Shown piece by piece: positions 2,896-36,559 of a stretch of DNA of 47,096 nt; the first letter of the stretch is position 1, and each line of letters starts with the position of its first letter. The notes below the pieces were generated by a model that did not search any database, was not told the origin of the DNA, and worked only from the letters and a program-made list of their open reading frames with translations. A program made the position numbers and the translations under genes. The DNA comes from a virus. Taxonomy: Duplodnaviria > Heunggongvirae > Uroviricota > Caudoviricetes. The stretch is taken from the IMG/VR virus record IMGVR_UViG_2802429246_000002. The stretch is one strand, 5' to 3'.

Positions 2896-3300
2896 TCATG
2901 CGTTACCATCGTCTTTTCTCCCCGGAATTAACTCGCGTGGATTATCGGAACGGTGGTAGAGCCATATACCAATACGCACAGCAACAATTGCTGACACGAA
3001 TGCGCCAGCAGAGAAAACAATCCCTTTTTCAAAAGAGTCCTGCGTGATAGTAGGGATCAGGCTGGCTATGCCGATAAGAATTGATGCTGCTGGTTTATAA
3101 AAAAGAAGGCCGCAGAGAAAGCTAAGCATCGACAAGAGTACACGACGACGAATGGGATACTCTACCGCAGAGGTAACAAAAATTACCGCTCCAGCCAAAG
3201 CCCCCAAAGCAACCTCAGGAGGAACTCCTGCTATCACCGCCGCCAGAGAACTCATGCTAAGCCACTGATTTAAAGTTTCACTGGTTAGTTGAGCTGACAT
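2896..3300 (-). CDS. Putative holin (multi-TM, charged C-terminus)
   Basis: About four predicted TM helices and a charged C-terminal tail; directly upstream of endolysin; start taken at ATG 3300 with GGTGGA RBS rather than the track GTG at 3309. Confidence 0.5.
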   Translation of the reverse strand: MSAQLTSETLNQWLSMSSLAAVIAGVPPEVALGALAGAVIFVTSAVEYPIRRRVLLSMLSFLCGLLFYKPAASILIGIASLIPTITQDSFEKGIVFSAGAFVSAIVAVRIGIWLYHRSDNPRELIPGRKDDGNA

Positions 3301-3846: not shown

Positions 3847-6588
3847 TTACACAGCACAAATCCTGATCGTTGCTGTGATATCAGTTTCAGTGCCATTATT
3901 GAGATATAACCTACCGCCTACAATTGACATCCCAATTTTGGTAGAAACTTCTTCATCTGCAGATGTCACCACCACGTTTGTTTTATTGTAATTACCAAGC
4001 GGAGATTCATCAGTCGAATGCCCTGGCCTCAATATCATTCCTACACCTGCAAAGAAATTAGGGTTCCCATTATTTATAACATCCACACAATAAGATAATG
4101 CGCTTTTACTAAGTGGGATGGATTGACTTGTATGTGCCTTAACCCACATTTCCCATACGTATTCACTTTTACGTATCGCCCCCTCACATGAACCAGATGC
4201 ATGGAATAACTTTCCTGATGATACAGTGTTATTGGTGCCAACAAGAATCATCTGATTTCCACCACCAAAGCCAAAGTTATCACCAAGAGATGGTCCACCA
4301 TTAATCCTTAACATATATGCATCAGTACTGCCTGATGAGGCGTCAGAGTTATCTATATATACAGTGCAATCACTTATAAGAACGCCATCAATCTTATCTG
4401 GCGCAACAGTATTAGTTTGGACAACGACGAACTCTCTGGTGGTAGATTTTGCCGAACAACCTTTAATAATTGTTGGTGTTTCAAGAGTATATGTTTGAGT
4501 AATAAAAATGAAATTACTAGGACGAAGCTTCCGATTAACAGCATTTGTTGCTTTCCACCATTTATTGCTTGATTCGGTTGTTTCGCTAAAGCCATCAATA
4601 TAGTGAGTATCGGTAATAGTAATTCCGCTACCATAATACAAACGAATCGGAAGGTTGCTAAATCCTCTAATCTCGCAACCAGATACTATCTCATTAAAAC
4701 CACGTATAGTTGCGCCATAAAAACAGTCAACTGCCACATTGTCTTTATATTTAGACTCTGCGGCACCACCATGACTACCAAACCCATAGGAAAATTCAGT
4801 CCATCCTTCCGATGGAAATATAATCCCACCAGTATAACCAGTTCCGCCACCACGCATTGTAATGTTGGTTACATTATTGTAGAGAGAACTCCAGTTACTC
4901 CCTCCAATATCAACACCACGCCTACAACAAGATGCATTGATATTGTCCACAGTGCAGTAACTGCTATTGGAAACAGAAACAGCATTACCTGTACCACCAT
5001 CACCATTGAAAACTCTATTGATTCCATACAGAGATGTATCACGAACAGTGCATCTTAAGCAGCCTAACAAGGTAATCCCAGCATTCGGGAAATTTTCCAC
5101 ACTAGCGAAACTGGCAATACCGTTTACGCAATATTCGAAGACAACCCCATCATAAGCTTTTTGTCCGCTAGTTGCATTGGTAACTAACCCGTGTATCGTC
5201 CCAACATGAAAATCTCCAGAAATATTAAATGTAGCAGGATAGACAGCCCAGGCCTCAGCTTGCCTAACCAAACGAAATGTATCTCCTGCAGCAGGTTTAT
5301 TTGGGAATCCAGTGTCAGCATTACTACCAATAGTAAATGTTTTTGTGTCATCATCATATGCTGTAACCATTTTGGTTATACCAGCATTATCTCCCGTTAA
5401 TCCAAGAATTTTATAGAGTGCATCACGAGGTGGTGATGTCACTGAGAAATTTGTAGATGTAAATGATTGCCCACTAGATGCGCCAGTAACTGTAACTGTA
5501 ATATTCCCTCCTGAACGGTAGTAATAATATGCATCCTGATCTAATGTCACATTATTTCCACTAAGTGAAACGACTTCAACAATTTGCCCTTCCTGCCAAC
5601 TTCCTCGGTTATCTCCACGAACAAGGTGGTTATTACGAATAACAAGCAAATCTCCGACAGAAATATCAGACACATCATCAAGAGTCACAGTCTTTTCGCC
5701 CAATGATATATCTCTCGTTATGAAATTATGCAATTTAGTACTTGCAATTCCACCAAGCTTTATTGCTGAACCTTCATATCCTACAACATTATTTGTGCAG
5801 AGCAATTCAACCTTTCCTGATGCCACCCAATCGAAGCAACCATATGGAATGGAAATATCTATTTGTGAAAACAGGTACTTTCCTGCTGTCCATTCCAAAC
5901 GCTTTCCGTTAGATGCGCAGTAAATGATGGCATTTGTTATTGCGTCTGTATCGTCAGTAATGCCATCCCCTTTTGCACCAAAATCGCGAACATTGACGAT
6001 ATCCCGCATCTTATCCTGGAACGTTCTGTATACTGCTCCAGAACCATACTGAATAAACAAACCAAAACCACCAACAACTCCGGCGATTGCAGCATCGACA
6101 TAATTACGCATTGAGCGATTATTTACAGCATCCTGCTCAAGTGATGGATCTGCAAGGTTAGAAATTCTGTTTTGTTTTGCATCGTAATATTTTGCAAGCA
6201 GAGAGGGCTTCATCAATGCACGTCTGAACCACCCAAAACATTGCTGGATCAGCATCGTCAGATAGTCAAAGGCATCCTCATGCACTTCGGGGAAAAATTT
6301 TCCCTGATTGCGAAGGTCTGTCTCCTGCACTACATCAAGCACACGATCTATCGTAATTCGCCATCCAGCAGCAAGCGGAGACGGAAGAACCACAGAACCG
6401 CCACTATAAGTGCCCGCCCCAGTTACCGTATAACCGGTATCCAGAACCAATTCTGTTACGTTCCCGTTCAGGTCAGACACCTGAACAACCAGGTCTGATT
6501 TTCTGAAAATTCGAAAAGTATACGGAAACGATGTCGTAACGCCGTTACCTGTGTATTCGTTGTGGTCAACTTCGGTTGAGACCGTCAT
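3847..6588 (-). CDS. Tailspike protein with pectate-lyase-like beta-helix (probable polysaccharide depolymerase)
   Basis: 913 aa; conserved podovirus tailspike N-terminal head-binding region; RDFGAKGDGITDDTDAI beta-helix motif; Ser/Thr/Gly/Asn-rich repetitive body. Confidence 0.8.
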   Translation of the reverse strand: MTVSTEVDHNEYTGNGVTTSFPYTFRIFRKSDLVVQVSDLNGNVTELVLDTGYTVTGAGTYSGGSVVLPSPLAAGWRITIDRVLDVVQETDLRNQGKFFPEVHEDAFDYLTMLIQQCFGWFRRALMKPSLLAKYYDAKQNRISNLADPSLEQDAVNNRSMRNYVDAAIAGVVGGFGLFIQYGSGAVYRTFQDKMRDIVNVRDFGAKGDGITDDTDAITNAIIYCASNGKRLEWTAGKYLFSQIDISIPYGCFDWVASGKVELLCTNNVVGYEGSAIKLGGIASTKLHNFITRDISLGEKTVTLDDVSDISVGDLLVIRNNHLVRGDNRGSWQEGQIVEVVSLSGNNVTLDQDAYYYYRSGGNITVTVTGASSGQSFTSTNFSVTSPPRDALYKILGLTGDNAGITKMVTAYDDDTKTFTIGSNADTGFPNKPAAGDTFRLVRQAEAWAVYPATFNISGDFHVGTIHGLVTNATSGQKAYDGVVFEYCVNGIASFASVENFPNAGITLLGCLRCTVRDTSLYGINRVFNGDGGTGNAVSVSNSSYCTVDNINASCCRRGVDIGGSNWSSLYNNVTNITMRGGGTGYTGGIIFPSEGWTEFSYGFGSHGGAAESKYKDNVAVDCFYGATIRGFNEIVSGCEIRGFSNLPIRLYYGSGITITDTHYIDGFSETTESSNKWWKATNAVNRKLRPSNFIFITQTYTLETPTIIKGCSAKSTTREFVVVQTNTVAPDKIDGVLISDCTVYIDNSDASSGSTDAYMLRINGGPSLGDNFGFGGGNQMILVGTNNTVSSGKLFHASGSCEGAIRKSEYVWEMWVKAHTSQSIPLSKSALSYCVDVINNGNPNFFAGVGMILRPGHSTDESPLGNYNKTNVVVTSADEEVSTKIGMSIVGGRLYLNNGTETDITATIRICAV

Positions 6589-6691
6589 GTTAAATCTCCA
6601 GATAGTCGCAGCACCCGTTGCGCCGCATATCTGGTTATTCTATTACCTGAAAAACCACATATGGATAGAAAGACTGTAAATACGAATAGAT

Positions 6692-6708
6692 ATTACCTTT
6701 CAGGTAAT
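6692..6708. promoter_or_regulatory. 17-bp inverted repeat attacct-ttc-aggtaat (operator-like site A)
   Basis: Exact 7-bp arms, reverse complements of each other; member of a family of at least 13 sites. Confidence 0.6.
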
Positions 6709-6744
6709 TTGCAAAACGTGCTGGATAGCAAACAAATTATTTGC

Positions 6745-6764
6745 TACTGTATAAATATACAGTT
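6745..6764. promoter_or_regulatory. Putative LexA (SOS) box TACTGTATAAATATACAGTT
   Basis: CTGT-N8-ACAG with AT-rich spacer, near-consensus, about 20 bp upstream of the ATG at 6784 with GGAG RBS in between. Confidence 0.7.
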
Positions 6765-6783
6765 ATTGCATGGAGAAGATAAG

Positions 6784-7041
6784 ATGCAGCAGTATCACTA
6801 TCCACTGGAAGACGGATTTACCGAAAGGATTCACACGCCGGGAGGCGTCAGATCACTGGTGGAGGGATCGCACTTGATGAAATTACTCCGGGATCTCGAT
6901 AAGGATGGATTTAATGTCGATGGCCCACTTGCCGAACTGACTGCACTGATTAACTACGTCACCAGCTCACAGATGTCTATGCAGGATCTGCAAACACATC
7001 TCGACTATTGTGCCGAACAATTACGAAAACAAACCCGGTAA
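6784..7041 (+). CDS. Small antirepressor-like protein (homolog of the C-terminal domain of the antirepressor at 8190..8885)
   Basis: 85 aa from MQQYHYPLEDGF; aligns with C-terminus of the 8190 ORF (Y..PL..G...IH.P.GV..L.E.S.LM.LL..L..DG..V.G..AELT); LexA box upstream. Confidence 0.6.
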   Translation: MQQYHYPLEDGFTERIHTPGGVRSLVEGSHLMKLLRDLDKDGFNVDGPLAELTALINYVTSSQMSMQDLQTHLDYCAEQLRKQTR

Positions 7042-7063: not shown

Positions 7064-7792
7064 CTATCGTTTCGCTTTGTGCTCGTCCCAGCACGTTTTG
7101 CACCATGCCATTAAGCCGTCCGCATTTTGATTATTAGGGTAAAAGCTGGTTCGTTTTCTGCGGACATTACAAATTGGGCACCACTTCATATGACGTGTAT
7201 TCTTTGGGCCATCGAGACACCTTGCACACCACTTAGTCAATCCATCTGGATTTTTTGACGATTTCCTGAATTTTTCATATGGAAGGTTTATTCTGCATCG
7301 CAAGCACTGCTTGCTACCGCTTGAAACTCTGTTAGCTGATTCTTCTTTTGGCGGCGATACAGAAGATATTCTTGCTGGCTCTGATACTGCCTGAGGTGCT
7401 TTTTTAAATGACTGAGACGATATGTCATCACCAGGGAATCTTCCATGATATGCCGGACGCGTTGACACTCCAGGTGGAAGCTCAGCTGTAAACGGCTTTG
7501 GCTGAATCAGTTGCCTCTCTTTTGCTAACTCCTGCTGTTTATAATATGTCTGGATTACCGCACTATCATAAGCAGGAGGTGCGGAAATATTAGGCGCATT
7601 ACCTCCAGTTTTTTGAAACTGAGTAGAGGTGTGTTCTATCACCTGTGTACGATTAATCGTTATCTCCCCATCTTCGGTCTTTATCGTTTTGTTATGATTA
7701 ACGACCGTACGATCAGAGATCTTAGTCTTGTTCTGGTTGATAACGTAAATAATCACCGTAACCACACCAACAACTATCCAGAAAACTTCCAT
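7064..7792 (-). CDS. Membrane-anchored protein with Pro-rich linker and tandem C-terminal zinc-ribbon repeats
   Basis: N-terminal TM helix; two repeats of C-x2-C-x(13-17)-DGL-x2-WC-x2-C; GAGGAA RBS; operator-like site 20 bp upstream. Confidence 0.6.
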   Translation of the reverse strand: MEVFWIVVGVVTVIIYVINQNKTKISDRTVVNHNKTIKTEDGEITINRTQVIEHTSTQFQKTGGNAPNISAPPAYDSAVIQTYYKQQELAKERQLIQPKPFTAELPPGVSTRPAYHGRFPGDDISSQSFKKAPQAVSEPARISSVSPPKEESANRVSSGSKQCLRCRINLPYEKFRKSSKNPDGLTKWCARCLDGPKNTRHMKWCPICNVRRKRTSFYPNNQNADGLMAWCKTCWDEHKAKR

Positions 7793-7828: not shown

Positions 7829-7904
7829 ATCTTGCTTTCAGGTGATCAAGCATTAAACGCAACCAACCAAATACGGTTGATTTTAATATTTATTCGCGTT
7901 TATC

Positions 7905-7921
7905 ATTACCTTTGCGGTAAA
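7905..7921. promoter_or_regulatory. 17-bp inverted repeat attacct-ttg-cggtaaa (site B2)
   Basis: Same motif family with one arm mismatch. Confidence 0.5.
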
Positions 7922-8189
7922 TTTACATCGCACTCCTCTTGTGCCATAGTAATCGGGCACTGGCAAAATCCAGTGCCGGGATTGGCGTCCCGGATTACTA
8001 AAAGGCGCATTCACCGCGCAAGCGGTTTTTTTATGCGTATAGCACGGCCACATTCGTATTATGGTGGGCTGTGTGGGGGCACCGAAAGGTGCGCCGGGTC
8101 CTTTTAGCCGGTTACGCCAACCCTGCACAGTTCACCACCAACCGATTGGCGTCGGTAGTGGTGATTAACCAGACTAAAAGGTAACCACT

Positions 8190-8885
8190 ATGACAGCTAC
8201 AAAAAGCACGTCCATTTTTTCTTTCGAATCCCAAGCCGATATACGGGTAATCGTCATTAATGGTGAGCCATGGTTTATCGCTTCAGATGTTTGTCGGGCT
8301 ATAGGCATAGCAAACCATCGAGATGCTGTTCGAAAACTTGATGATGATGAGAAGGGCGTCGCTTCAACCGACACCCCTGGCGGTGAGCAAGAATCGATCA
8401 TTATCTCCGAGTCAGGCCTCTACACACTGATCCTCCGCTGCCGCGATGCGGTGACACCAGGCACTATCCCCTACCGCTTTCGTAAATGGGTTACAGGTGA
8501 GGTTCTTCCTCAGATCCGCCGCACCGGAAGTTACATTAAAAACTCGCTCCCGCAGGAAGAACGCATAAAGATGGTTGCCGACCAGGTTGCCAACGCCACG
8601 GCGTCAGCAGTAATGCAGGCGATGAAGATAGAGAACAAAACCTACAGCGCCCCGCTGAAGCCAGGATACCGCAGTCTGATTCACTCGCCGTCTGGTGTTC
8701 TCGGCCTGACGGAGAACTCACTGCTGATGAATCTGCTGAACCAGTTACAGGAAGACGGGCATGATGTATCGGGCGCGGCGGCGGAGCTGACCACCATGTT
8801 CTGCTACATCGTCGGTGTGAGTAAATGCCTGCGTGATATCCAGACGCATGCGGAGTACATCAACGACAAGGCTGGGTTCTTCTGA
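8190..8885 (+). CDS. Antirepressor (Bro-N/KilA-type N-terminal domain + Ant C-terminal domain)
   Basis: N-terminal IRVIVINGEPWFIASDVCRAIG...ISESGLYTLILRCRD resembles Bro-N; C-terminal domain homologous to the 6784..7041 ORF. Confidence 0.7.
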   Translation: MTATKSTSIFSFESQADIRVIVINGEPWFIASDVCRAIGIANHRDAVRKLDDDEKGVASTDTPGGEQESIIISESGLYTLILRCRDAVTPGTIPYRFRKWVTGEVLPQIRRTGSYIKNSLPQEERIKMVADQVANATASAVMQAMKIENKTYSAPLKPGYRSLIHSPSGVLGLTENSLLMNLLNQLQEDGHDVSGAAAELTTMFCYIVGVSKCLRDIQTHAEYINDKAGFF

Positions 8886-8950
8886 CGGGCGGCGGCACAG
8901 GGATGTGCCTTTAAAATAATCATTGGCGATGTGATGTAGATTCGCGTAAT

Positions 8951-8967
8951 ATTACCTTAAAGGTAAA
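8951..8967. promoter_or_regulatory. 17-bp inverted repeat attacct-taa-aggtaaa (site C)
   Basis: Sits 26 bp upstream of the ATG at 8993 with strong GAGGAGGAG RBS in between. Confidence 0.55.
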
Positions 8968-8992
8968 CCATGTGTTTACATGAGGAGGAGAT

Positions 8993-9202
8993 ATGGGATT
9001 TTGGTTCGCTCGTACAAAAACGAGGGATAATGCACCCAGCCCTCAGGCAAAAAATGCAGAAGTTCCGGCGTCAGCGCAGGTTAACAAGCGTGGTGGAGTA
9101 TATATCTCATCACAGCAAATTTCTGAGCTTCCTGAGGTTAAGGAGATGCGTCGTCTCGCTGCTGCAATTGTTAAACAGGATCTTGCCACTGTAAGGAAGT
9201 AG
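8993..9202 (+). CDS. Small soluble protein (69 aa), first gene of a two-gene cargo operon
   Basis: Strong RBS GAGGAGGAG; stop overlaps start of the downstream membrane protein gene (TAGTG); no recognizable domain. Confidence 0.55.
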   Translation: MGFWFARTKTRDNAPSPQAKNAEVPASAQVNKRGGVYISSQQISELPEVKEMRRLAAAIVKQDLATVRK

Positions 9203-10068
9203 TGTTGCTAGCTCTTCTAATTATCCCAATCCTGGTTAGCGGTTATATTATGATAACCGCTAACCAGTATCATTATTTCCGTTTATACCGACACGAAGGC
9301 CAGCTTCTTTATATGAAAGTAGCGGCACTAGGTACATATTGCCTTGTTGCATCAGTAATAATTGCAGCCGCTATAAAATATAAATGGCCTGATTTTCACC
9401 TAGTTCACGATATGGTGGAAACTTTTAATGTAACATCAAAACCAGAAACAGATAGAATTTACATGTGGCTGCTTCTTCTCTCAGCCACATCCATTTGCTT
9501 CTCTTTGTGTTATGTGTCTGTTGTGTGGGTGAAAGATTTTCTTCTTGGTTGTTTTTATAAACGTGATATTTACGAGCAAAAAACAGAGGCAATGAAGGCC
9601 AGAGTACTGCGAAAAACTTACTCGCAGGGTTCTTTAGACTTACTATTGCTTGATGCTATTGAATCGGATCCTAAACGACCAATGCTGATTACTTTATCAT
9701 CAAACAAAGTGTATGTTGGAATAATAAATGGTTCTGGTGAACCAACGGAAAATCAGGGTCCGCATCAGCACATATCTTTTGTTCCTTTAATGTCAGGATA
9801 CAGGAACAAAGAAAACTTATCTGTCACATTCACTAATGCTTATCCAGGAGAAATACAGGTCAAGCGGACTGCAGCAATAAGAGGAATTAGCAGAAAGAAA
9901 GTGCCAGGACTTGAGATCATGGTGTCTATTGACGAAATAAGTTATATATCATGGTTTGATTTTGAAGTATATAAAGCAACAAATAACAAAGTAGAATCCA
10001 GGGGGCACGTTATTCGTGTTACCAAAAATGGAAGAAATATATATCAAAGAAATAGCAAAAAAGAATAG
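9202..10068 (+). CDS. Integral membrane protein (3-4 N-terminal TM helices) with ~150 aa C-terminal soluble domain; unknown function
   Basis: 288 aa; GTG start overlapping upstream stop; AT-rich codon usage; followed by intrinsic terminator. Confidence 0.65.
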   Translation: MLLALLIIPILVSGYIMITANQYHYFRLYRHEGQLLYMKVAALGTYCLVASVIIAAAIKYKWPDFHLVHDMVETFNVTSKPETDRIYMWLLLLSATSICFSLCYVSVVWVKDFLLGCFYKRDIYEQKTEAMKARVLRKTYSQGSLDLLLLDAIESDPKRPMLITLSSNKVYVGIINGSGEPTENQGPHQHISFVPLMSGYRNKENLSVTFTNAYPGEIQVKRTAAIRGISRKKVPGLEIMVSIDEISYISWFDFEVYKATNNKVESRGHVIRVTKNGRNIYQRNSKKE

Positions 10069-10088
10069 CCCGCGCCGCGGGCTTTTTT
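10068..10088 (+). terminator. Rho-independent terminator (GC stem gcccg/cgggc + T6)
   Basis: Hairpin followed by TTTTTT directly after the stop of the 9202..10068 gene. Confidence 0.6.
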
Positions 10089-10160
10089 GTGGACGAAACA
10101 AAAGTCAGTGCTACACTCATTGACGCCACATTGAGATGGCTTATAGATGGAAATTTCACA

Positions 10161-10322
10161 ATGAAAAAAGCATTTGCTGCACTGTTCGTTTTGTTGTCTC
10201 TGGTAGCTTCAACTCAGGCCTTTGCCGGTCGTTGTCAGCACGACAGCGATACTGCTGCTGACGGCTCCCGCTGCGGTGGGCGTTCTGCGGATTCCCGCCC
10301 GGGCGGCGGTGGCATCCGTTAA
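10161..10322 (+). CDS. Small secreted Cys-containing peptide (signal peptide + ~30 aa mature, Gly/Asp/Arg-rich)
   Basis: MKKAFAALFVLLSLVASTQAFAG signal peptide, AFA cleavage motif; start chosen at internal Met 10161. Confidence 0.4.
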   Translation: MKKAFAALFVLLSLVASTQAFAGRCQHDSDTAADGSRCGGRSADSRPGGGGIR

Positions 10323-10351
10323 AAACAAGGCCGCGAAAGCGTCCTGTTTGA

Positions 10352-11203
10352 TCACTGTGCAGTTTTCGCTGATCGATTTTCAGCTCTAAATTCAAGAACC
10401 GTTTCAATATTTCTTTCCTTCAGCATATCAATAACATTTTTATTCATTTGACTATCACTGGTTAATAACTGGTAAACGTTGCTTCTCTCTTTATCAGAGT
10501 TTTCTTTAACAGCTGCTTTGCATGCCAAATGCTTATTGAAATTTTCTACATCGCTAGTACAGGAATTTACGGCTGCTGATGAAATATCAGACGCTGAAGA
10601 AACACCATCATCCAAACGTTTTATAGCATTTTCTATACATGAGTTAAGGGAATAAACGACAACTGAGCGATACCCTTCAGACGCACACCATTCTAAATTT
10701 CTTGAAGGATCGAGTGGTTTTACTTCGCTGGATTGAATTAACTTGTCAAAAACTGACTTATATTCAATCTGTTTTTTATCTATAGCCCATACTTCAGTAG
10801 CTGATTTATAATTCCCCGTATGCCTATTAACATCAAATCCATGTTTTATAAGCAAATCTGCCCATGAAAGATTTATTGATTCATTGTTATGAGGCCATTT
10901 TCCTGTCAGAACCGCCCCCATAGACCCCATATATCCGCCATATGATGGTATAGCACCATGGCTCAGTAACTTCTCAGCAACCACAGGGCAATTAATTACA
11001 TAAGAGGCGTAAAGCCCATTCCATAAAGCCCCTCTATAGTAATCGCCACGATTAGGTTCTTTTAAGTCGATAGCCTTTGATAATTGTTCACACGTTTTGC
11101 ATGCATCAAAGTTATCCTTATTGCATTGCAATGAACTGGCAGCTGTAGGATTTACAGAGACTATTGAAAGCACTATGCCAAAAAACAAATTTATTTTTTT
11201 CAT
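10352..11203 (-). CDS. Secreted protein with possible ankyrin-like repeats (AT-rich cargo gene at the end of the ejection-protein operon)
   Basis: N-terminal signal peptide; segments VAEKLLSHGAIPS and WADLLIKHGFDVN loosely resemble ankyrin repeat cores; about 38% GC; starts 1 bp after the stop of the upstream gene. Confidence 0.5.
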   Translation of the reverse strand: MKKINLFFGIVLSIVSVNPTAASSLQCNKDNFDACKTCEQLSKAIDLKEPNRGDYYRGALWNGLYASYVINCPVVAEKLLSHGAIPSYGGYMGSMGAVLTGKWPHNNESINLSWADLLIKHGFDVNRHTGNYKSATEVWAIDKKQIEYKSVFDKLIQSSEVKPLDPSRNLEWCASEGYRSVVVYSLNSCIENAIKRLDDGVSSASDISSAAVNSCTSDVENFNKHLACKAAVKENSDKERSNVYQLLTSDSQMNKNVIDMLKERNIETVLEFRAENRSAKTAQ

Positions 11204-11204
11204 C

Positions 11205-14200
11205 CTATTTCATCTGCTCTTCAACTTTATTTAGTAATGGTGATATCGCCCACAGATTCTGAAAAGGTAGCATTTTACGGACAGCGTGGGTTTGCTGGCT
11301 GTCAAATTCTCCGTTAAGTACACCATTTGCAACCGTCGCGGCATCACCGCCAAGATCAAAGGTAGGACCAAGTAAAGCACCAATAGCATTACGACTCTGA
11401 AACCTTGATACCGGAGGCGCACCAAACATCGCGCCAAGACCAAACCTACCGCCGCTTATGTTCTCAACGGTATTCAGCGGCTCAGAGAGCCAGCCAAGCA
11501 TTCCGCCCCGGTCGATCCCCTCTTTCACAAGGTTATTCCAGCTGTAGTCAATATCGCGACCGCTTAACTTCTGTTTCATCATATAGACCATTGAGCCAAG
11601 CGCAATCGTGCCAAGCGCACCAAGATAGAATGCAGCATCGCCCTGCTGGATACCAGATACCAGCACCCTGTTATGCTGTGCGAAGATAAACGTTTTAAAC
11701 TGCGTGATCATCTTCCAGCCTTCTTTACTAAAAAACAGCGGGGTATCACCTACGCCAGGCGTTACAATCACTGAGTCTACATCTTTCAGCACTGCAGACT
11801 GGAAAATCTCTCTAGCGAAACGGTCATCCCACAGATGACTATGCCCGGTTAACAGCCCGTCCATATCCTCTCCGTGCTTCCCGAATTGCTCCCCGATTCG
11901 GCGCAGAACATCTTCATTGATGCCGACCTGTGCCATCTTCCGCATTTCACTTTTGGAGAGCGTGCCACCAGCAGAAACTTTGCGAGCCGCGTCAAGTATC
12001 CTCGACTGCACTATCATCCCGGACCATGATTTAAGTGCGCTGTTCCACTGATTCATCAGCGTCCAGTTACCGAATTTCTGCGTCATCCAGTTCAGACCTC
12101 GCTCAGCGGCGCTTCTCCGGCTATAGGGGTCAGTAAGATCCGCTATAGCCTTTGTACGCGTAGACAGGACATAATCAAGCCCAACGGCCATTTCTCGCAA
12201 ATCCCTGGTTGCAATTTTCACTGAGTCCATATTTTTAAGCATGCTTACCATTGGTCCGAGAGATTTTCTCAGGCCATGCTGCATCATCGGTCGCATCAGA
12301 TCAGTTGCAGCGGAGACAGTCATTCCACCAAGCAAACGGAGGAAGTTAATATTCCTAGCAACTCGCCCGGCACGAACAAAGAAACTGCGTGGATCTTGAG
12401 GTGCACCGTAAGTACCAAGCAGTCGATCACGCATAGCCGTAATATCCCTAATATCAGCCTCCCGTTGCTTCTCAAGAACTGCACGTCGTTTAGGTGTTTT
12501 AGCCTCTTTTATTAGCCGGGTATATTCCTCACTAACCTGACGGATTTGCTCCCCCATATCTTTACGGCCAAACTGCGCAGTCAGCTCAATTTCTGGTGCC
12601 ACCTGCCGGAGATAACTTTCCATGATGTAGTTAACATCTGATTCAAGAAAATCTTCTATACGCTCATCAGGAATAAGCAGCGTTCTGCTTTTAGTGAAAC
12701 CAGCCCGACCAACGAGTCTCTCTGGGATAATATCGGCTGGTACAAGCCCGGAAGGTGCGCCTATTATTTTATTCACGATCTCGTCAGCAGCGTCCTCTGC
12801 TTCCTCTCGGGATAGAGGCTCCATCTGCTTCAGTGCTCGTTCGCGGCTTGCATTCAGCCTTGTGGTTGAATTTGCCCGTTTTTGCAGTCGGCGAAGCTCA
12901 GAACGATATTTCCGTGGATTATCCAGCAACTCCATATGGCGCTGATAGACAGGAAGCTCACTCTTTGCCTGCGCTATATCATCAAGGCGTGTTTTAAGGT
13001 CAGAGCTTTCTTTCATCATTCTTGCCTGAAGTTTTTCTGATGAAGTCTCGGCCAACTCTTTTTCTATTCTTGTAAGACGCGCCTGTGTGTCAGTCTCCTG
13101 AGATATAAGCTTATTTCGTTTATCCAGTTCTTCCATGAGTAGAATTTTTTTACCAGACCATTTCTCCGCTTCAGCGATTTCACTAGCGAGAGCATCAGCG
13201 CGCGGTGCCGATTCCTCTGCAGTTTTTAGCAATGAATTTATCCTTTCAATTCGCTGACCTGCTTTGTCAGCACCTTTGGCACTAATCCCTTGTATCCAGT
13301 TGGCAATTCGCCCTCTGAATTCAGTGCGGTCGGAAAGTATCTTATCGAACTTATAAATGCGGGGAAGATAACTTTTCGCCGTCACGACATCGATATCTTC
13401 AGGAAGGATCCCCAGTTCCTGCATACGGGCTTTTGTGGTCTCGAAAATGGGGCGGATTCTGGCGGCTGCTTGTGAAACCTCAGGAATATCACTCTGATCA
13501 CCACGGCGCATAGCCATGCCAACAGCTTCATTGAAATCAATAAAGTTCATCCTCTTCACGCCGCGGGCGCTAACAGATTTGCTGTACTGCTGGTAAGCAT
13601 CACGAGTAGCTTCCATCTGCTTATAAAGCATGGCGTCGTATTGCTTAATCTTAGTCTCGACTGCTGTAAACGTAGCCAACCCCTCATCATTTTTGGCGAA
13701 GAAATAGTTATTTTCGGCAAGCTGCTGGTTAATCTGACGGGAGACAAGAGATGGTGATTGCGCCAAGCGGCCAGCAGGAGTGACACTCAACGTTTTGTTA
13801 GCAAGTCCAAGTCCAGCGAGCTGTTCCTGATCGAGTGTGGTATTGAAAACCTGAGCTGCACCAATGCTTTGAGGAGAATCCATACCTCGCAAATGATTAC
13901 CTACTGAGTTAACCACTGCCTCGCGCGCGCCAGGTCCAGCAAGTAGCTGTGCACCAGCACCAAGAATCCCACCAACGAGAGCATCAACAACAACGTTCGA
14001 TACGCTCTCCATCGGTGAGCGAGCTTCCTGAGTGGCCTGTAATGCGGCCTCTGAAGCAACACTGCCAGCAGCATTCGCCATGGCAAAACGCCCGGCTGTT
14101 TCTGCAATACGACCGCCACGAACGACAGCGCCGAACGGAATAAACATAGAAATCGCATTGAATGGATCTGCTAATCTCATTGCTACAGAAGAGACTGTAC

Positions 14201-14594
14201 CAGCAAATCCCAAGCCTGAATTGTATTCCATGTCAGCTCTCTGCTGATCGATTCGATGTTTAATTGCCATTGTTTCTTCAGGCGAACCGGAGTTGATAAA
14301 CGAATCTGCAAAATCTTCATAGCCTTTAATATCTGCTGCATCGTTATCAAATGGGTTATATCCTTCAACCCTGTCAAACTGACTGAAAGGAGCACTGGCA
14401 ATAAAGCTACCCAGCGTGTTATCTATACGAAATGCTGCTTGTCTAGACCTTTGAACGCGTTGATCACTGGTAAATGGGTTCACAGCAGAAAGCAAAGAAG
14501 GTGTTTCCATATAGAAATTACTGTCATCAGGTGCTGCTATTTGCTGAATATCCTCGCCAAGCAACTCTTTAGGATCCTGTTCATATATCGGCAT
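11205..14594 (-). CDS. Internal virion / DNA-ejection protein (large, 1129 aa)
   Basis: Size, position after tail tubular genes, coiled-coil-rich sequence; typical of podovirus core/ejection proteins. Confidence 0.6.
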   Translation of the reverse strand: MPIYEQDPKELLGEDIQQIAAPDDSNFYMETPSLLSAVNPFTSDQRVQRSRQAAFRIDNTLGSFIASAPFSQFDRVEGYNPFDNDAADIKGYEDFADSFINSGSPEETMAIKHRIDQQRADMEYNSGLGFAGTVSSVAMRLADPFNAISMFIPFGAVVRGGRIAETAGRFAMANAAGSVASEAALQATQEARSPMESVSNVVVDALVGGILGAGAQLLAGPGAREAVVNSVGNHLRGMDSPQSIGAAQVFNTTLDQEQLAGLGLANKTLSVTPAGRLAQSPSLVSRQINQQLAENNYFFAKNDEGLATFTAVETKIKQYDAMLYKQMEATRDAYQQYSKSVSARGVKRMNFIDFNEAVGMAMRRGDQSDIPEVSQAAARIRPIFETTKARMQELGILPEDIDVVTAKSYLPRIYKFDKILSDRTEFRGRIANWIQGISAKGADKAGQRIERINSLLKTAEESAPRADALASEIAEAEKWSGKKILLMEELDKRNKLISQETDTQARLTRIEKELAETSSEKLQARMMKESSDLKTRLDDIAQAKSELPVYQRHMELLDNPRKYRSELRRLQKRANSTTRLNASRERALKQMEPLSREEAEDAADEIVNKIIGAPSGLVPADIIPERLVGRAGFTKSRTLLIPDERIEDFLESDVNYIMESYLRQVAPEIELTAQFGRKDMGEQIRQVSEEYTRLIKEAKTPKRRAVLEKQREADIRDITAMRDRLLGTYGAPQDPRSFFVRAGRVARNINFLRLLGGMTVSAATDLMRPMMQHGLRKSLGPMVSMLKNMDSVKIATRDLREMAVGLDYVLSTRTKAIADLTDPYSRRSAAERGLNWMTQKFGNWTLMNQWNSALKSWSGMIVQSRILDAARKVSAGGTLSKSEMRKMAQVGINEDVLRRIGEQFGKHGEDMDGLLTGHSHLWDDRFAREIFQSAVLKDVDSVIVTPGVGDTPLFFSKEGWKMITQFKTFIFAQHNRVLVSGIQQGDAAFYLGALGTIALGSMVYMMKQKLSGRDIDYSWNNLVKEGIDRGGMLGWLSEPLNTVENISGGRFGLGAMFGAPPVSRFQSRNAIGALLGPTFDLGGDAATVANGVLNGEFDSQQTHAVRKMLPFQNLWAISPLLNKVEEQMK

Positions 14595-17341
14595 TATTTG
14601 CCCCCTGCGTATATATTGCTCGGAAGGTAATTGGCTGAACCATAACCGAATGGTTTGGTCAGATCTGGAGGAGTATATCCATCTTTATTGCTGAACTGCG
14701 GCAGCGGATTGCCTTCTCTCCGCACTCTAGCCTCATCAACACGCTGTTGCTGGAACTGAATGGTTTGCCTGTACATTGGAGATGTCAGCTGATCCGGCTT
14801 GAAACGAACAGGGAGACCATTTTCTCCAATATAATTTCTCGGTTCTATCGCTCCGTTTGCGTCAGGCTGTAAAACCATAACAGCATAACTCCTATCCCTT
14901 GCCGTAAGGCCATCAGAAACAAGTATTAAGTCCGTATCACTGCGAGGACCGCCAAAGGATTTTGATTTAAGCTCGCGTTTTTCCTGCTCCCACTGCCCCT
15001 GTATCCAGTTACCAGCACCATTATTTACTCCGTACAATGCCTCAGGTGCATACTTCATAACCTCTGCTTTGCCATTAACCGTAGAAACTCCCCAGGTGGT
15101 TCTGATCATGGCATTGGTCATTTTCTCAGCCTGTTCTGCATCGCCACCTGTCTGTACAAAGTTAGCATCGTAAATTGTCTGGTAATCTCGCTGATAGGCC
15201 GCATTTGATTTTCCTGGATCGGTAATATCCGGAGACCACGAACCAAAGGAAGTCAGACTGCTGGCGTTATTTTGTGCAGCAGTTGCCCTCGCCGCGACAT
15301 ATTTTTTGTCTCGCATGGCAGTGGAAAGCATCTGTTTCATTCGGTCATCCTGTTGGAACACCTGGCTGTAAGCCATATCAACAGCCTTATCCTCCGGCAC
15401 GCCAGCGCGGGAATAATCGTAAACCTTGCCGTAAAATGCCATCGTACTTTTATCAAGTGTTGCCGCTGCCGCCGGATTATTATCGAATAACTGACCGTAG
15501 AATTTTGCCATCGGGACAACCAGCGCAGGATCTCTTGATGTTGCTCCACTGTTAAGCATTGTTTTAACCTGAGTTGGTATCATGCCGCTTTTAGTTGTGA
15601 CGGTGACCAGTGTATTGATGCTCTGCGGATCAGATATGGAAAACGAAGGCGCAATATCCTGCGCGAAATAACGGTCTACCGCTGCCTGATTGTTTTTGTC
15701 GTTCGGGTCCAGCGGGAAGTTATTTTGCATTGAAGACACGAACCTGTTTCTTCCCTGCTGAATCTCCCAATCCCTATCCATCTCTTTAAATTTGGCCTGC
15801 ATTTTCTCCCAGCGTTGCTGGTTAGCTGCAAATCCAGGAGCGTTTGGATCCTGTGGACGTAAACGTTCAAGAATGTCTTGTCGTCCTTCTGGAGTGAGGT
15901 CTTTAGCGGCACCAATGACACCTCCATATTGTATCTGCGCCTGCATATCCTTCCACTTCATAGCGCCAATGCGCGGACCATTGGCCCGGATAAAATCGTC
16001 CTCAGAAGGTAACTGCTCAGGTTTCAATCCTTCATCAAGGGCTGAATATGCATCTTTAACTACGGTGCTAAGCTGGTCCGCATACTGCTGGCGGTACTGA
16101 TTTCTCAGCTCATTAGCCTGCCTCAATGCCTGTATTTGCATTTGAGGGCTCATAGCATCAAATGCCGCATTGCCCGTATAACGCTTAGGTGAATCAAGGT
16201 TAGTTAGACCAAGGGCTGCCGAGATACCAGTTTCAAGCTGTTCGGTGCTATAAGGCATACTGCCATTTTCGTGTTTAATAATCCCAGCAAATAAAGCAGC
16301 TAGTGTCTTTGGGTTAGAGATATCAAGCTGATCATTCTCCCCAACACCAAGCTCACCACACAATGCCCTAATATAAGCATCAGTATTATTACCATCACTA
16401 GCCGGAGCATAGCGATTAACAATCTCGCTAACGGTGTCATAGCCTTGACGCTGGTAAGACAACATATTTTTACCCAACGCGCGGATTCCATGCTCAGGGG
16501 TAGCAAACGTTGCAAAACGTCCATCGCTACCGATCTGACCTTCCCACGGGTTAGATTTGCTCGCTTCAATATTACCAGGGTTATTATTACGTAAACCACG
16601 AGCATCCAATGAATTACCATGTGACATTGCACGACTCACACCGTCAAGATCCCCTGGCTCTCCATTAACCTGAAGAAACTCGTTGTATTTTTGAGCGATA
16701 TTTCCTATCCATGCTTGCTGCCCCATTTGTTCCTTGAGCTGAGTTTTCTGCTGAACACGCCACTCATCAGGAAGCCCATGCGCATCAGCGTATTGATCAA
16801 TAGATTCAAATCGCTGCTTGGCTAAATCGACAAATGCTTGGTTATCGCTATATAGCCCCGCAGACTGAGTGACAGCCAATGCATTTCCTGACAAATACGT
16901 TTGATCTTGGAATTGCTGAAACTGCCCAACTTCATATCGACGTGCCTGATTGTAATAAGACTGCATAGACTGCTGGAGTTGAAAGGATAATTTATTCCTT
17001 TCCTCACTTTCAGGAATTGAGCCTAATAATGCCTGAGCCCTTTCCTGCATATTTTTCATAACAGCGTCACTCTGACCAAGAGCGTTTTTACCCTGTTTAG
17101 AAATCAGCCCATTTTCAGGGTTGTTAATCTGGTCATCTGCAAATTGGTTAAATTGCAGTAACGCCTCCTGGGCCATAGCAACATTCGCTTTCTGCCTGGC
17201 TTCACCATATGCCACCGCATACTGATCTGCGACATTCGCCAGCACCTGACCTGCTTGAGGAACATCGAAGGTCTGAAAACCACCGGTTTGCACACCACGA
17301 CTTTGCACCTGGCGTCCGGATGTAGTAGGAACAACAGGCAT
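14594..17341 (-). CDS. Internal virion / DNA-ejection protein (915 aa)
   Basis: Position and size; Gln/Asn-rich N-terminus; conserved-looking block around RNNNPGNIEAS in the N-terminal third. Confidence 0.6.
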   Translation of the reverse strand: MPVVPTTSGRQVQSRGVQTGGFQTFDVPQAGQVLANVADQYAVAYGEARQKANVAMAQEALLQFNQFADDQINNPENGLISKQGKNALGQSDAVMKNMQERAQALLGSIPESEERNKLSFQLQQSMQSYYNQARRYEVGQFQQFQDQTYLSGNALAVTQSAGLYSDNQAFVDLAKQRFESIDQYADAHGLPDEWRVQQKTQLKEQMGQQAWIGNIAQKYNEFLQVNGEPGDLDGVSRAMSHGNSLDARGLRNNNPGNIEASKSNPWEGQIGSDGRFATFATPEHGIRALGKNMLSYQRQGYDTVSEIVNRYAPASDGNNTDAYIRALCGELGVGENDQLDISNPKTLAALFAGIIKHENGSMPYSTEQLETGISAALGLTNLDSPKRYTGNAAFDAMSPQMQIQALRQANELRNQYRQQYADQLSTVVKDAYSALDEGLKPEQLPSEDDFIRANGPRIGAMKWKDMQAQIQYGGVIGAAKDLTPEGRQDILERLRPQDPNAPGFAANQQRWEKMQAKFKEMDRDWEIQQGRNRFVSSMQNNFPLDPNDKNNQAAVDRYFAQDIAPSFSISDPQSINTLVTVTTKSGMIPTQVKTMLNSGATSRDPALVVPMAKFYGQLFDNNPAAAATLDKSTMAFYGKVYDYSRAGVPEDKAVDMAYSQVFQQDDRMKQMLSTAMRDKKYVAARATAAQNNASSLTSFGSWSPDITDPGKSNAAYQRDYQTIYDANFVQTGGDAEQAEKMTNAMIRTTWGVSTVNGKAEVMKYAPEALYGVNNGAGNWIQGQWEQEKRELKSKSFGGPRSDTDLILVSDGLTARDRSYAVMVLQPDANGAIEPRNYIGENGLPVRFKPDQLTSPMYRQTIQFQQQRVDEARVRREGNPLPQFSNKDGYTPPDLTKPFGYGSANYLPSNIYAGGK

Positions 17342-26557: not shown

Positions 26558-26646
26558 ATCAATGACTCCGTACGCAATTAAATTATTACCAATTTAACCA
26601 CATATGATTTATTTATCGTAGATAGTTGACATTTAACGCACGAATT

Positions 26647-26663
26647 ATTACCTTTCAGGTAAC
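26647..26663. promoter_or_regulatory. 17-bp inverted repeat attacct-ttc-aggtaac (site D)
   Basis: Same motif family; upstream of the GC-rich structured region and tRNA. Confidence 0.5.
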
Positions 26664-26984
26664 CAAAGAGTTCATTCCGGTTACTAACCTGACTGGCTTG
26701 TCGTTAAATTGAACAGGTGGAGTGAGCTTTTATTTTGAGCAGTACGGCGTATGGCACATGCGCCGATAGCGGTCTGGATACGTTTAAGGGGCACCCTCCC
26801 TTGCTCGGGCAAACGAACCAGGTAGCCGGAATGTGCAAGTCGAGCGGTTTTATTCCGCGCACGGGGATTCACCATCCCGGCGATTCGGTGTGACACCTCG
26901 GAAGAGACGAGGGTACAACGATGAGGGCATTTATGGAGCCGCGACAAAGTGTGGTGCCTTAACAGGCTAAGTGCTCTCAGCGTT

Positions 26985-27061
26985 GTGGCATTAGCTCAGC
27001 TGGACAGAGCAACCGCCTTCTAAGCGGTTGGTCGCAGGTTCGAATCCTGCATGCCACGCCA
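26985..27061 (+). tRNA. tRNA-Arg (anticodon UCU), phage-encoded
   Basis: Manual fold: acceptor GTGGCAT/ATGCCAC, D-stem GCTC/GAGC, anticodon stem ACCGC/GCGGT with loop CTTCTAA, T-stem GCAGG/CCTGC with loop TTCGAAT, discriminator G, encoded CCA; sequence differs from E. coli argU. Confidence 0.85.
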
Positions 27062-27104
27062 GAATCACGCCTAAGGACCGTGATGCCAGAAGTTCCATGG
27101 GCTT

Positions 27105-27146
27105 GGCGGTGATGGTTTCCCTTGAAGGACTATCACCGCCCTTTTT
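27105..27146 (+). terminator. Rho-independent terminator downstream of tRNA (stem ggcggtgat/atcaccgcc + CTTTTT)
   Basis: 9-bp stem followed by T-run on plus strand. Confidence 0.55.
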
Positions 27147-27224
27147 ACAGCAGGACGCCATTGCGATGACTTCATGCTGTAAACCAGTACAGCCACGGAA
27201 GGCATAACTCATTGCTTCCAGTTC

Positions 27225-27248
27225 GCCCGGTTCGCCGGGCATTTTTTT
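27225..27248 (+). terminator. Rho-independent terminator (gcccgg-ttcg-ccgggc + T7)
   Basis: Perfect 6-bp GC stem with tetraloop followed by TTTTTTT. Confidence 0.65.
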
Positions 27249-27263
27249 GCCTGGTGACTGAAC

Positions 27264-27280
27264 GTTACCTTGAAGGTAAG
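27264..27280. promoter_or_regulatory. 17-bp inverted repeat gttacct-tga-aggtaag (site E)
   Basis: Core TTACCT-N3-AGGTAA intact; 32 bp upstream of the ATG at 27312. Confidence 0.5.
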
Positions 27281-27311
27281 ATAACAAAAACATTTAACAT
27301 CTGGTTTAGAC

Positions 27312-27917
27312 ATGTTCGAGCAATTTAAAGAGATCGCATCATCGGCTATTAGCACAACGTCAGAGAGAGTCCGCAACCCAGCACTTGGGGCATTTGTGTT
27401 TTCGTGGTGTTCTTTTAACTGGAATCCACTATTATTTTTATTCTTCAGTAAGTCAGGAATTGAAGAAAAAATAAATTATATATCTTCCCATAGTGATGCG
27501 TACCACTCACTCTTATATCCAGCTTTATGTGCATTCGCGCTGTGTGTAATAGTTCCATGGTTTAACAATATAGTGGTGATGTTTCAAAAAATTCCACTAC
27601 AGAACATCGATAACTTCAAACACAACAAAAGCCTCAGGGATGTTAAAAACGCCATAGAATTGCGTAAGCTTGAGGCACAAAGGGACATTACATACGACAG
27701 AGTTAAGGTTGAGTTTGAGTCTGAGATTCAATTCTATAAAAATGATTTAATCAAGCACCAAGAGTCTTTGAATTCTTTTTTGCAGGAAAGAGATTCCCTT
27801 ATTGAAAAAATAATGGCGCTTGAAAAAGAACTTGCAGAAGAAAAAATAAAATCCAATACCAGAATTGCAAATAAGTTTAACTCAAGGAACAATCGCAACA
27901 CAGACAATGCTGCTTAA
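27312..27917 (+). CDS. Cargo membrane protein: two N-terminal TM helices + C-terminal coiled coil (unknown function)
   Basis: 201 aa; about 35% GC; opposite strand to flanking terminase and portal genes; preceded by operator-like site. Confidence 0.65.
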   Translation: MFEQFKEIASSAISTTSERVRNPALGAFVFSWCSFNWNPLLFLFFSKSGIEEKINYISSHSDAYHSLLYPALCAFALCVIVPWFNNIVVMFQKIPLQNIDNFKHNKSLRDVKNAIELRKLEAQRDITYDRVKVEFESEIQFYKNDLIKHQESLNSFLQERDSLIEKIMALEKELAEEKIKSNTRIANKFNSRNNRNTDNAA

Positions 27918-27921
27918 AACT

Positions 27922-35974: not shown

Positions 35975-36559
35975 ATGAAAAGTATCCAGGACGTCCGCAG
36001 GCAAAATCTCAACGACTTGATCGACCGTGAATTCAATGGTGTTCAGACGCGGATGGCAGAAAAACTTGGAACTCAGGCAAATCTGGTAAACCGCTGGGCT
36101 CTTGGCAAGAAGGTTATCGGCGACCAGGTTGCGCGAAAAATTGAAGCTGCCGCCAATAAACCCCGTAACTGGCTTGATATCGATCGCTCGCTTTCTCAGG
36201 AAGGTTTTCAGCCTGTCGGCCCAAGCGACATTGGTCAGCTGGCGGCTCACAACCTGGAACGCTGGATGAGCGAAAGCCGCGACCTTTCAACACAGGGAAA
36301 ACTTCACCGCGCATCCGGCGTCGCCCAGGTAACAATCAGCCGCCTGTTAAACAATGAGGTCAGCGTTTCCATTTCCACCCTGGAGAATGTTGCATCCGCA
36401 TTCGGGCGTCACGGCTATGAATTACTGATTCACCCGCACGACCCTGCGACCATCAACTATGACCGCTCGCGCTACGCATTGTTACCCGAAACCGAGAAAG
36501 CAAAGATCGAAAGTTACATTGAATTTGTCATCAACCAGAACGAAAAAAATAAACAATAA
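35975..36559 (+). CDS. Prophage repressor (CI-like), two HTH-like regions, no obvious LexA/S24-type autocleavage domain
   Basis: 194 aa; N-terminal XRE-type HTH (VQTRMAEKLGTQANLVNRW) and second HTH-like segment (GVAQVTISRLLNNEVSVSISTLENVA); divergent to cro-like gene. Confidence 0.65.
   Translation: MKSIQDVRRQNLNDLIDREFNGVQTRMAEKLGTQANLVNRWALGKKVIGDQVARKIEAAANKPRNWLDIDRSLSQEGFQPVGPSDIGQLAAHNLERWMSESRDLSTQGKLHRASGVAQVTISRLLNNEVSVSISTLENVASAFGRHGYELLIHPHDPATINYDRSRYALLPETEKAKIESYIEFVINQNEKNKQ

Follow-up and report, generated by a model that had tools for sequence, protein, structure and literature searches.

What does a pair of genes set between the tailspike and ejection genes of a prophage, on the strand opposite to both, do for the element that carries it? 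This question is raised by IMG/VR virus record IMGVR_UViG_2802429246_000002, a 47,096-nucleotide (nt) stretch of Caudoviricetes DNA (the whole stretch is hereafter called the window), in which a small gene of 69 amino acids (aa), gene A, runs directly into a gene for a 288-aa predicted membrane protein, gene B. A sequence-only reading had presented the two as a self-contained cargo operon and a candidate exclusion or abortive-infection module. Our analysis describes A–B as a genuine two-gene family that is well delimited and has not been characterised, for which a conflict role on mobile elements is a candidate function with good circumstantial support, and places it in an exchangeable cargo slot of the prophage.

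The ribosome-binding site (RBS), the two genes, the TAGTG junction between them and the terminator behind them are all found where that reading had put them (Table 1). PHROG 5739 matches A (E = 7e-52) and PHROG 3630 matches B (E = 1e-113), both families being of unknown function; these matches, together with the conservation of the pair in distant taxa, show that both open reading frames (ORFs) are real genes. The GC content of 0.37–0.42 over positions 9001–10000, against ~0.50 in the structural genes, bears out the AT-richness of the locus, and the pair does lie on the opposite strand, reading on the plus strand whereas the tailspike gene (3847–6588) and the genes for the 1129-aa and 915-aa internal proteins (11205–17341, the former being 11205–14594) read on the minus strand. 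The TAGTG overlap calls for a correction. It is present, the A stop codon sharing its last base with a GTG; however, the B start conserved in the Enterobacterales clade is instead the TTG two bases past that stop, and the overlap, as read from the sequence, marks only one of two possible B starts. TAATG stop/start overlaps are found in the copies of two P2-like phages, SEN5 and a Klebsiella phage.

A cargo slot with fixed edges

The prophage sits between yfgI and guaA, and its relatives phiV10, TL-2011b, ZX5 and phiv142-3 belong to Uetakevirus, a group of epsilon15-like podoviruses; an epsilon15-type gp10 staple protein accompanies phiV10, TL-2011b and ZX5. Comparison of window positions 8886–8967 and 10058–10160 with the corresponding regions of five loci (L016, L023, L025, L027 and L039) shows that the edges of the slot are precise to the nucleotide. 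The left flank common to the relatives starts with the ant stop codon and extends across the palindrome TTACCTTAAAGGTAA, and unrelated cargos all start directly after AAAGGTAAA. The common right flank consists of the last codons of B (GAATAG), the terminator and then a gene for a 53-aa signal-peptide protein (ATG at 10161); the unrelated cargos all end in GAATAG (AAGTAA in ZX5), followed by the common terminator CCCGC-nnn-GCGGGCTTTTTTGTGGACGAAAC, and thus have their last codons in common with the flank. In a blastn comparison with HEMP4, the flanks (8389–8967 and 10058–10347) are 97% identical and enclose a different cargo of 629 bp, namely a 55-aa gene and an ORF of up to 193 aa. The slot holds nothing in phiV10, a 59-aa gene and a YafO-family toxin gene (Pfam E = 8e-6) in TL-2011b, a 108-aa gene overlapping a gene for a DUF2335 membrane protein in ZX5 and EC.W1-9, and two tiny ORFs in phiv142-3.

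Since its promoter, its operator and its terminator are all parts of the slot, the A–B unit is not self-contained, and this part of the earlier description falls: the palindrome and terminator are also found in relatives with other cargo. In contrast, the suggestion that the genes might be variable cargo rather than core is confirmed. Only 28 of the 5,426 complete E. coli genomes have A–B, sister phages have other genes or nothing in the slot, and the pair shows the marks of a moron, namely a fixed site, presence in some close relatives only and a deviant base composition.

The palindrome at the left edge of the slot is part of a large set. In the window, TTACC-N5-GGTAA occurs as 12 perfect and 5 one-mismatch sites, versus 0.8 expected; these 15-nt sites start at 3162, 6693, 7813, 7906, 8952, 26648, 27265, 29984/30002, 33556, 33618, 35520, 35857, 35905, 36617, 36679 and 41761. 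Two pairs of sites (35857/35905 and 36617/36679) flank a gene for a 194-aa repressor with a double helix-turn-helix (HTH) at 35975–36559, and the remaining sites occupy most intergenic promoter regions, with single sites abutting the -10 element of several promoters. The slot palindrome itself is retained upstream of unrelated cargo in HEMP4, phiv142-3, AR_0085, TL-2011b and ZX5. The operator-like site noticed earlier therefore exists, but it is one of ~17 dispersed sites and belongs to the slot rather than to A–B.

The putative slot promoter was read from the sequence and scores below the threshold of the promoter scan, which did report the promoter upstream of the C4/ant region. Both promoters have ATTCGCGT before the -10 element and an operator abutting it, suggesting that slot promoter and ant promoter are paralogues under the control of one palindrome-binding protein, which would most simply be the prophage repressor. 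The C1 repressor of phage P1 acts at dispersed operators, and the TTACC-N5-GGTAA set looks like genome-wide operators of the P1 C1 kind. These sites are not described in the ZX5 paper (PMC9782041). If the slot promoter is governed by the repressor, A–B may stay off in a stable lysogen and be switched on upon infection or induction, rather than protect the lysogen constitutively.

Phages of the ZX5 group integrate at the 3' end of guaA and encode a Bro-N protein that serves as antirepressor, the repressor being separate (PMC9782041). In the window, the Bro-N antirepressor gene ant lies upstream of the slot and is itself preceded by three Rfam-matched elements (Table 1). By its sequence, the immI region of this epsilon15-like podovirus prophage is of the P1/P7 type with a C4 RNA, not of the P22 Mnt/Arc type. 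The P22-like placement once proposed for the unit, at a position of sieA and the immI region, is accordingly replaced by that of a Uetakevirus, epsilon15/phiV10-like, at guaA.

Table 1. Positions of the A–B unit, its slot and the upstream immunity region in the window
Feature	Position	Strand	Details
Shine–Dalgarno (SD) sequence of gene A	8982–8990	+	GAGGAGGAG; strong; read from sequence
Gene A	8993–9202	+	69 aa; ATG start at 8993
A/B coupling junction	9193–9207	+	SD-like AAGGAAG 9193–9199; A stop TAG 9200–9202; B starts GTG 9202 / TTG 9205
Gene B	9202–10068	+	288 aa from GTG 9202; alternative start TTG 9205
Hairpin within gene B	9232–9267	+	15-bp perfect hairpin, then U-rich stretch; codons 11–22 of B, coding for transmembrane helix 1; terminator scan
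Predicted linker helices of B	aa 127–154	+	two helices; AlphaFold2 model
Predicted Sm/LSm-like beta-barrel domain of B	~9634–9966 (aa ~145–255)	+	AlphaFold2 model
Intrinsic terminator	10067–10089	+	7-bp GC stem and T6; stem AGCCCGCGCCGCGGGCT at 10067–10083; terminator scan
Swapped cassette	8968–10057	+	RBS, gene A and all but the last codons of gene B
Operator palindrome	8952–8966		TTACCTTAAAGGTAA; overlaps -10/+1; left edge of slot
Putative sigma-70 slot promoter	8923–8952	+	-35 TTGGCG 8923–8928, 18-nt spacer, -10 TAATAT 8947–8952
Bro-N antirepressor gene (ant)	8190–8885		upstream of slot
Promoter upstream of C4/ant	7877–7906		TTGATT-18-TATCAT; promoter scan; operator at 7906 abuts -10
C4 antisense RNA	8057–8142		Rfam, 77.7 bits, E = 8e-15; upstream of ant
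isrK	7957–8032		Rfam, E = 2e-16; upstream of ant
C4 a1/b1 target element	7944–7996		Rfam; upstream of ant

Several accessory genes neighbour the slot. On its ant side, a small plus-strand ORF (6661–7041) between the tailspike gene and a zinc-ribbon gene is 42% identical over 74 aa to the Bro-N C-terminal domain (E = 3e-15); it represents a stand-alone copy of the Ant C-domain, and the operator site at 6693 precedes it. The zinc-ribbon gene (7064–7792, minus strand) encodes a 242-aa accessory protein that has a transmembrane (TM) helix at its N-terminus and, at the C-terminal end, two CxxC zinc-ribbon repeats; this protein belongs to PHROG 6762 and gives weak endonuclease VII and Lar-like matches. 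On the other side, the 53-aa accessory protein (10161–10322, plus strand) is rich in Gly and Arg, matches PHROG 14503 ("membrane associated protein") and has an apparent signal peptide, and is followed by the gene for a 283-aa secreted accessory protein (10352–11203, minus strand; GC 0.38), likewise with an apparent signal peptide, of PHROG 6118 (function unknown). Further away, a second AT-rich island (26600–27950; GC 0.37 at 27501–28000) is bracketed by the operator sites at 26648 and 27265 and holds two divergent ORFs, 26991–27293 (minus strand) and 27312–27917 (plus strand, 201 aa, no Pfam match); it may be another regulated cargo position.

Distribution and expression signals of the pair

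The A–B pair is conserved across ~20 loci in several phyla and is carried on phages, plasmids, an integrative element and chromosomes, with an ORF of 58–93 aa located 0–51 nt upstream of, or overlapping, every B homologue examined. In Providencia, it occupies the same region of an epsilon15-like prophage; in lambdoid prophages of Citrobacter, Pectobacterium and Enterobacter/Kosakonia, it lies between the chromosome junction and int; in the Cronobacter phage phiES15, between int and attP; and in two P2-like phages (SEN5 and Klebsiella ST15-OXA48phi14.1), in the interval from gpA to the portal gene. It is further found on conjugative IncC plasmids of Salmonella, on an integrative element with TraN/TraG in Vibrio cholerae, on the chromosomes of Pseudomonas poae and its relatives and of P. 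asiatica, and in various settings in Symbiopectobacterium, Arsenophonus, Sodalis, Bowmanella and an Acidobacteria metagenome-assembled genome (MAG). A profile search with B returned 2,338 representatives at 50% identity (E <= 1e-3), 123 of them at E <= 1e-30; members are mostly 250–290 aa long, and the sources named are Pseudomonas, Vibrio, Providencia, Citrobacter, Enterobacter, Kosakonia, Pectobacterium, Arsenophonus, Sodalis, Bowmanella and the Acidobacteria MAG. The Citrobacter locus also contains a Pfam SieB domain as a separate gene. In two insect symbionts, Sodalis (L019 5971–6141) and an Arsenophonus endosymbiont (L020 5971–6126), B is reduced to a pseudogene of 51–56 codons with the upstream A intact, a decay of the membrane partner alone.

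Three of these loci abut known defence systems. In P. asiatica, a complete PD-Lambda-5 system (L014 9110–11802; E = 5e-235 and 9e-125) lies directly downstream of the pair; on the IncC plasmids, the pair neighbours a RecD-like/PDC-S68-like ATPase and a methyltransferase; and in the Klebsiella P2-like phage, an A–B-like pair lies beside bSEFIR (PADLOC E = 7e-103) in the gpA–gpQ locus, an experimentally supported anti-phage hotspot of P2-like phages (PMC9122126). The P. asiatica island also has large unannotated genes of 523, 399 and 293 aa, which may be further defence candidates.

The expression signals of the two genes are asymmetric: A has a strong SD sequence and an ATG start, whereas B has the TTG start and a hairpin that begins 27 nt into the gene (RNA minimum free energy (MFE) of -24.7 kcal/mol). 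When the MFE was set against those of 1,000 synonymous recodings, the z-score was -6.1 for the window, -5.1 for Providencia, -5.0 for Pectobacterium, -4.4 for Citrobacter and -2.7 for Symbiopectobacterium, showing that the hairpin is conserved and selected across five lineages of the prophage-borne Enterobacterales clade; in Arsenophonus, Pseudomonas, Vibrio, Bowmanella and Acidobacteria, it does not stand out against recodings. The core helix is retained in 8–9 of 11 sequences with three compensatory pairs; synonymous changes in the left arm (GGT->GGC, TAT->TAC) pair with amino-acid changes in the right arm (ACC->GTC, ATA->GTA). Covariation among the 11 sequences was not significant, a score as high as the observed one arising in 61 of 500 shuffles; the hairpin is supported by the comparison with synonymous recodings. 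An outer stem that masks the B RBS is confined to the window and its closest relative and is not claimed as conserved. The TTG start and the hairpin suggest that B is held low relative to A, by attenuation or by a translational brake; the hairpin may also be a site to which a protein binds.

The two proteins and their family status

Hydropathy analysis places three TM segments in B (aa 1–22, 35–60 and 86–116), and the enrichment of Lys and Arg past the third segment implies an N-out/C-in topology, so that B is predicted to be an inner-membrane protein with a cytoplasmic C-terminal domain of ~175 aa. The earlier estimate of 3–4 TM helices thus holds at its lower figure, and its ~150-aa cytoplasmic domain becomes one of ~175 aa. 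In sister genomes, PGAP/RefSeq calls B as a 251-aa protein from an internal ATG (L001 12414–13169; L039 5370–6125), by which TM1 is lost. Since the N-terminal motif LL-IPILVSGY is invariant in 22 homologues, we take the long form to be correct; the 251-aa call is almost certainly wrong, and the public E. coli annotation of the B family is probably truncated. Across the wide family, the invariant residues of B are Y37, G44, K169, Y171, S198, G199, R201 and Y214, and G14, G33, Q34, G173, P181, E183, P195 and F252 are among the near-invariant ones.

In the AlphaFold2 model of B (predicted local distance difference test (pLDDT) of 73), long TM helices lead via two linker helices into a helix and a barrel of bent strands, which carries a 20-residue low-confidence insertion (217–236). 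The N-terminal helix and five bent beta-strands of the modelled domain superpose on solved Sm proteins, and Foldseek searches of the PDB and BFVD with the model returned weak Sm-like matches (E >= 0.003; those cited for the Sm-like fold itself at E >= 0.02) together with uncharacterised viral proteins. In this moderate-confidence model, and with these weak E-values, the C-terminal domain of B is shown to be Sm-like in fold.

Protein A, by hydropathy, is a basic soluble protein with no hydrophobic segment. Its N-terminal half is disordered and is followed by the conserved core V-x-K-R-G-G-V-Y-I-S-x-x-x-I-x-E-L-P-E-V-K-E-M, which is kept in Providencia, Citrobacter, Pectobacterium, Sodalis and Arsenophonus; the small proteins of the Enterobacterales have the common core R-V-G-x-R-G-G-x-Y-I-P-S-x-E-I-x-x-L-P-E-V-K-x-M. 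Built from a shallow alignment, the AlphaFold2 model of A has a pLDDT of 66 overall and is confident only for residues 31–69 (pLDDT 71–90), modelled as a short beta-hairpin and then two helices. Distant A-like proteins retain this hairpin-helix pattern and are connected by weak pairwise links (Pseudomonas–Sodalis, E = 0.019; Vibrio–Bowmanella, E = 0.0015; phiES15–Vibrio, E = 4e-4). An AbrB/MazE-like reading of the core, taken as V-G-x-x-G-x-x-I-P-x-x-E-I, was dropped, profile searches giving no hits.

Searches of Pfam, NCBIfam and PADLOC and sequence searches of the PDB with A, B and 56 diverse relatives of B gave nothing usable, in agreement with the sequence-only reading, which had assigned the pair to no family. 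The defence hidden Markov models of PADLOC-DB v2.0.0 match neither A nor B, nor the copies of the pair in the P2-like phages and phiES15, and one marginal AbiEii match (E = 0.009) appears among 56 B-family members. For B and 55 relatives, Pfam LSM/Hfq models give no match and the Sm1/Sm2 motifs are not found; B likewise lacks a match to PF00924 (MS_channel) and shows neither a Pfam WYL match nor a W-Y-L signature. In layout, with a small first gene closely coupled to the gene behind it, the pair corresponds to type II toxin–antitoxin (TA) systems; Pfam, NCBIfam and PDB sequence searches reveal no type II toxin or antitoxin domain. Because the sequence features of TA, PADLOC, Sm/Hfq, WYL and MscS families are not found, A–B is filed in no known family, and the only recognizable traits are the Sm-like fold, the TA-like gene layout and the behaviour of variable cargo. 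Searching the literature for the PHROG and WP identifiers turned up no papers, and a keyword search yielded general hotspot papers only.

Weighing a conflict role against its rivals

Because the pair is conserved, mobile, present in hotspots, located beside defence genes, asymmetric in expression, rare and AT-rich, we read A–B as a mobile accessory two-gene conflict module of an undescribed family, most likely of the abortive-infection or TA-like kind, a reading to which we assign a probability of about one half; it is a credible candidate for a phage-defence or TA-like system. In such a module, B would be the membrane effector, with three TM helices carrying a cytoplasmic Sm-like barrel that may mediate ring assembly and/or ligand sensing, and the small cytoplasmic partner A, coupled to B in translation and produced in larger amounts, would hold B in check or set it off. 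The pair would be read from the slot promoter, overlapped by an operator of the repressor-flanking type, downstream of the C4-RNA/antirepressor operon. We infer that B may damage or gate the membrane, that A may neutralise or sense, and that the outcome may be anti-phage. A bolder version, in which A–B founds a new class of membrane systems for immunity or abortive infection, widespread and built of two components, with a membrane-tethered Sm-like ring as the sensor and gate of a pore of 3TM subunits, control by a ~65-aa partner, B dosage set by the intragenic hairpin and, in Uetakeviruses, a repressor-controlled slot, is speculative and in our view improbable as a whole.

Several observations pull the other way. 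Neither A, B nor 56 diverse B relatives have a usable Pfam, NCBIfam or PADLOC match; the Sm-like Foldseek E-values are weak and the B model is of moderate confidence; and hotspots hold non-defence cargo too (PMC9122126). The operator overlapping the slot promoter is of the repressor-flanking kind, and silence in the lysogen would be atypical of a defence that protects lysogens. In the P. fluorescens group, moreover, the pair is chromosomal and syntenic behind an HTH-cupin regulator, amid metabolic neighbours and with no mobile-element genes nearby, which looks more like a stable cellular function.

This last point bears on two alternatives at once. A non-defence membrane function, such as that of a stress-responsive channel, of a regulator, or of a factor that benefits the host through fitness or lysogenic conversion, would account for the left-flank synteny kept in many P. 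fluorescens-group species, and is compatible with a 3TM plus Sm-like layout that recalls MscS-type channels, with the non-defence cargo of hotspots and with the lack of a defence-family signature; we consider it rather unlikely. For superinfection exclusion, in which inner-membrane B would block DNA entry or ejection in the manner of P22 SieA or T4 Imm with A as an accessory, the same Pseudomonas synteny implies that a phage-specific role is not required. The earlier label of an exclusion or abortive-infection module thus survives in part: the context of a conflict module fits, but exclusion specific to phages is not called for by a pair that is also syntenic on Pseudomonas chromosomes. That an inner-membrane protein is encoded in a podovirus prophage with tail genes on one side and ejection genes on the other, and that the pair takes moron positions in several phage types, would suit exclusion; an entry block is nevertheless less expected on IncC plasmids, an integrative element and a Pseudomonas syntenic site, B shows no similarity to SieA, SieB or Imm (no Pfam SieB match), a large conserved cytoplasmic domain and an obligatory cytoplasmic partner are foreign to known entry blockers, and the promoter is apparently under a repressor-type operator. 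Taken together, these points make exclusion quite improbable.

A pure addiction TA pair, stabilising the mobile element without any anti-phage role, would explain the small upstream gene, its tight coupling to a larger downstream gene and the presence of the pair on IncC plasmids, and in TL-2011b the same slot does hold a small gene followed by one for a YafO-family toxin. However, neither protein has a recognisable toxin or antitoxin domain, DNA binding or lability of A is not demonstrable, and defence adjacency and hotspots point as much to defence, two roles that often coincide; addiction alone is, if anything, a shade more doubtful than exclusion. That the ORFs arose by chance or are annotation artefacts might be suspected from the shorter B called by PGAP and from the annotation of both genes as hypothetical, yet this idea is refuted by conservation, namely the PHROG matches, the 2,338 B representatives with invariant residues and the occurrence of the pair from E. 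coli to an Acidobacteria MAG, and retains a negligible probability.

If A–B proves to be a defence or abortive-infection system, it would constitute a new immunity family with thousands of members and without a Pfam, NCBIfam or PADLOC model, and would provide the first membrane-anchored Sm-like domain acting as effector or sensor. The pair is compact (~1.1 kb), simple to clone and directly testable, and mobile elements of four kinds supply natural variants of it. The slot, with its fixed promoter-operator and terminator edges and the dispersed operators around it, further bears on how accessory genes are wired into the lysis–lysogeny circuit.

Among known systems, P22 SieA and T4 Imm resemble B in being small phage-encoded inner-membrane proteins of accessory regions, with no detected homology; SieA and Imm act alone and without a large cytoplasmic domain. 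The YafO-family pair of TL-2011b (gp45/gp44) has, like A–B, a small upstream gene that overlaps or adjoins a larger one and occupies the same slot between identical flanks, and type II TA cassettes are likewise carried on plasmids and prophages; in contrast to these, B is a 3TM membrane protein rather than a ribosome-dependent RNase, and the pair has no toxin or antitoxin domain. From Sm/LSm/Hfq and WYL proteins, B differs in its conserved residues (K-x-Y-x-G, P-x-E, S-G-Y-R and Y), which are not Sm1/Sm2 motifs, in the predicted tethering of its barrel to the membrane and in the insertion at 217–236.

RexA/RexB of phage lambda are, like A–B, a prophage-borne, accessory and immunity-linked pair of a soluble and a polytopic inner-membrane protein, without sequence or profile similarity to A–B (no PADLOC match). 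RexB, with its four TM helices, lacks a soluble domain, and the sensor RexA is 279 aa long; in A–B, by contrast, it is the membrane protein that bears a large, predicted Sm-like domain, and the partner is only ~65 aa long. In architecture, B recalls MscS, a protein of ~286 aa with three TM helices in N-out/C-in orientation and a ring formed in the cytoplasm by its Sm-like beta domain: B is of similar size, and its three TM helices, N-out/C-in topology and cytoplasmic Sm-like domain, as modelled, would follow the same plan.

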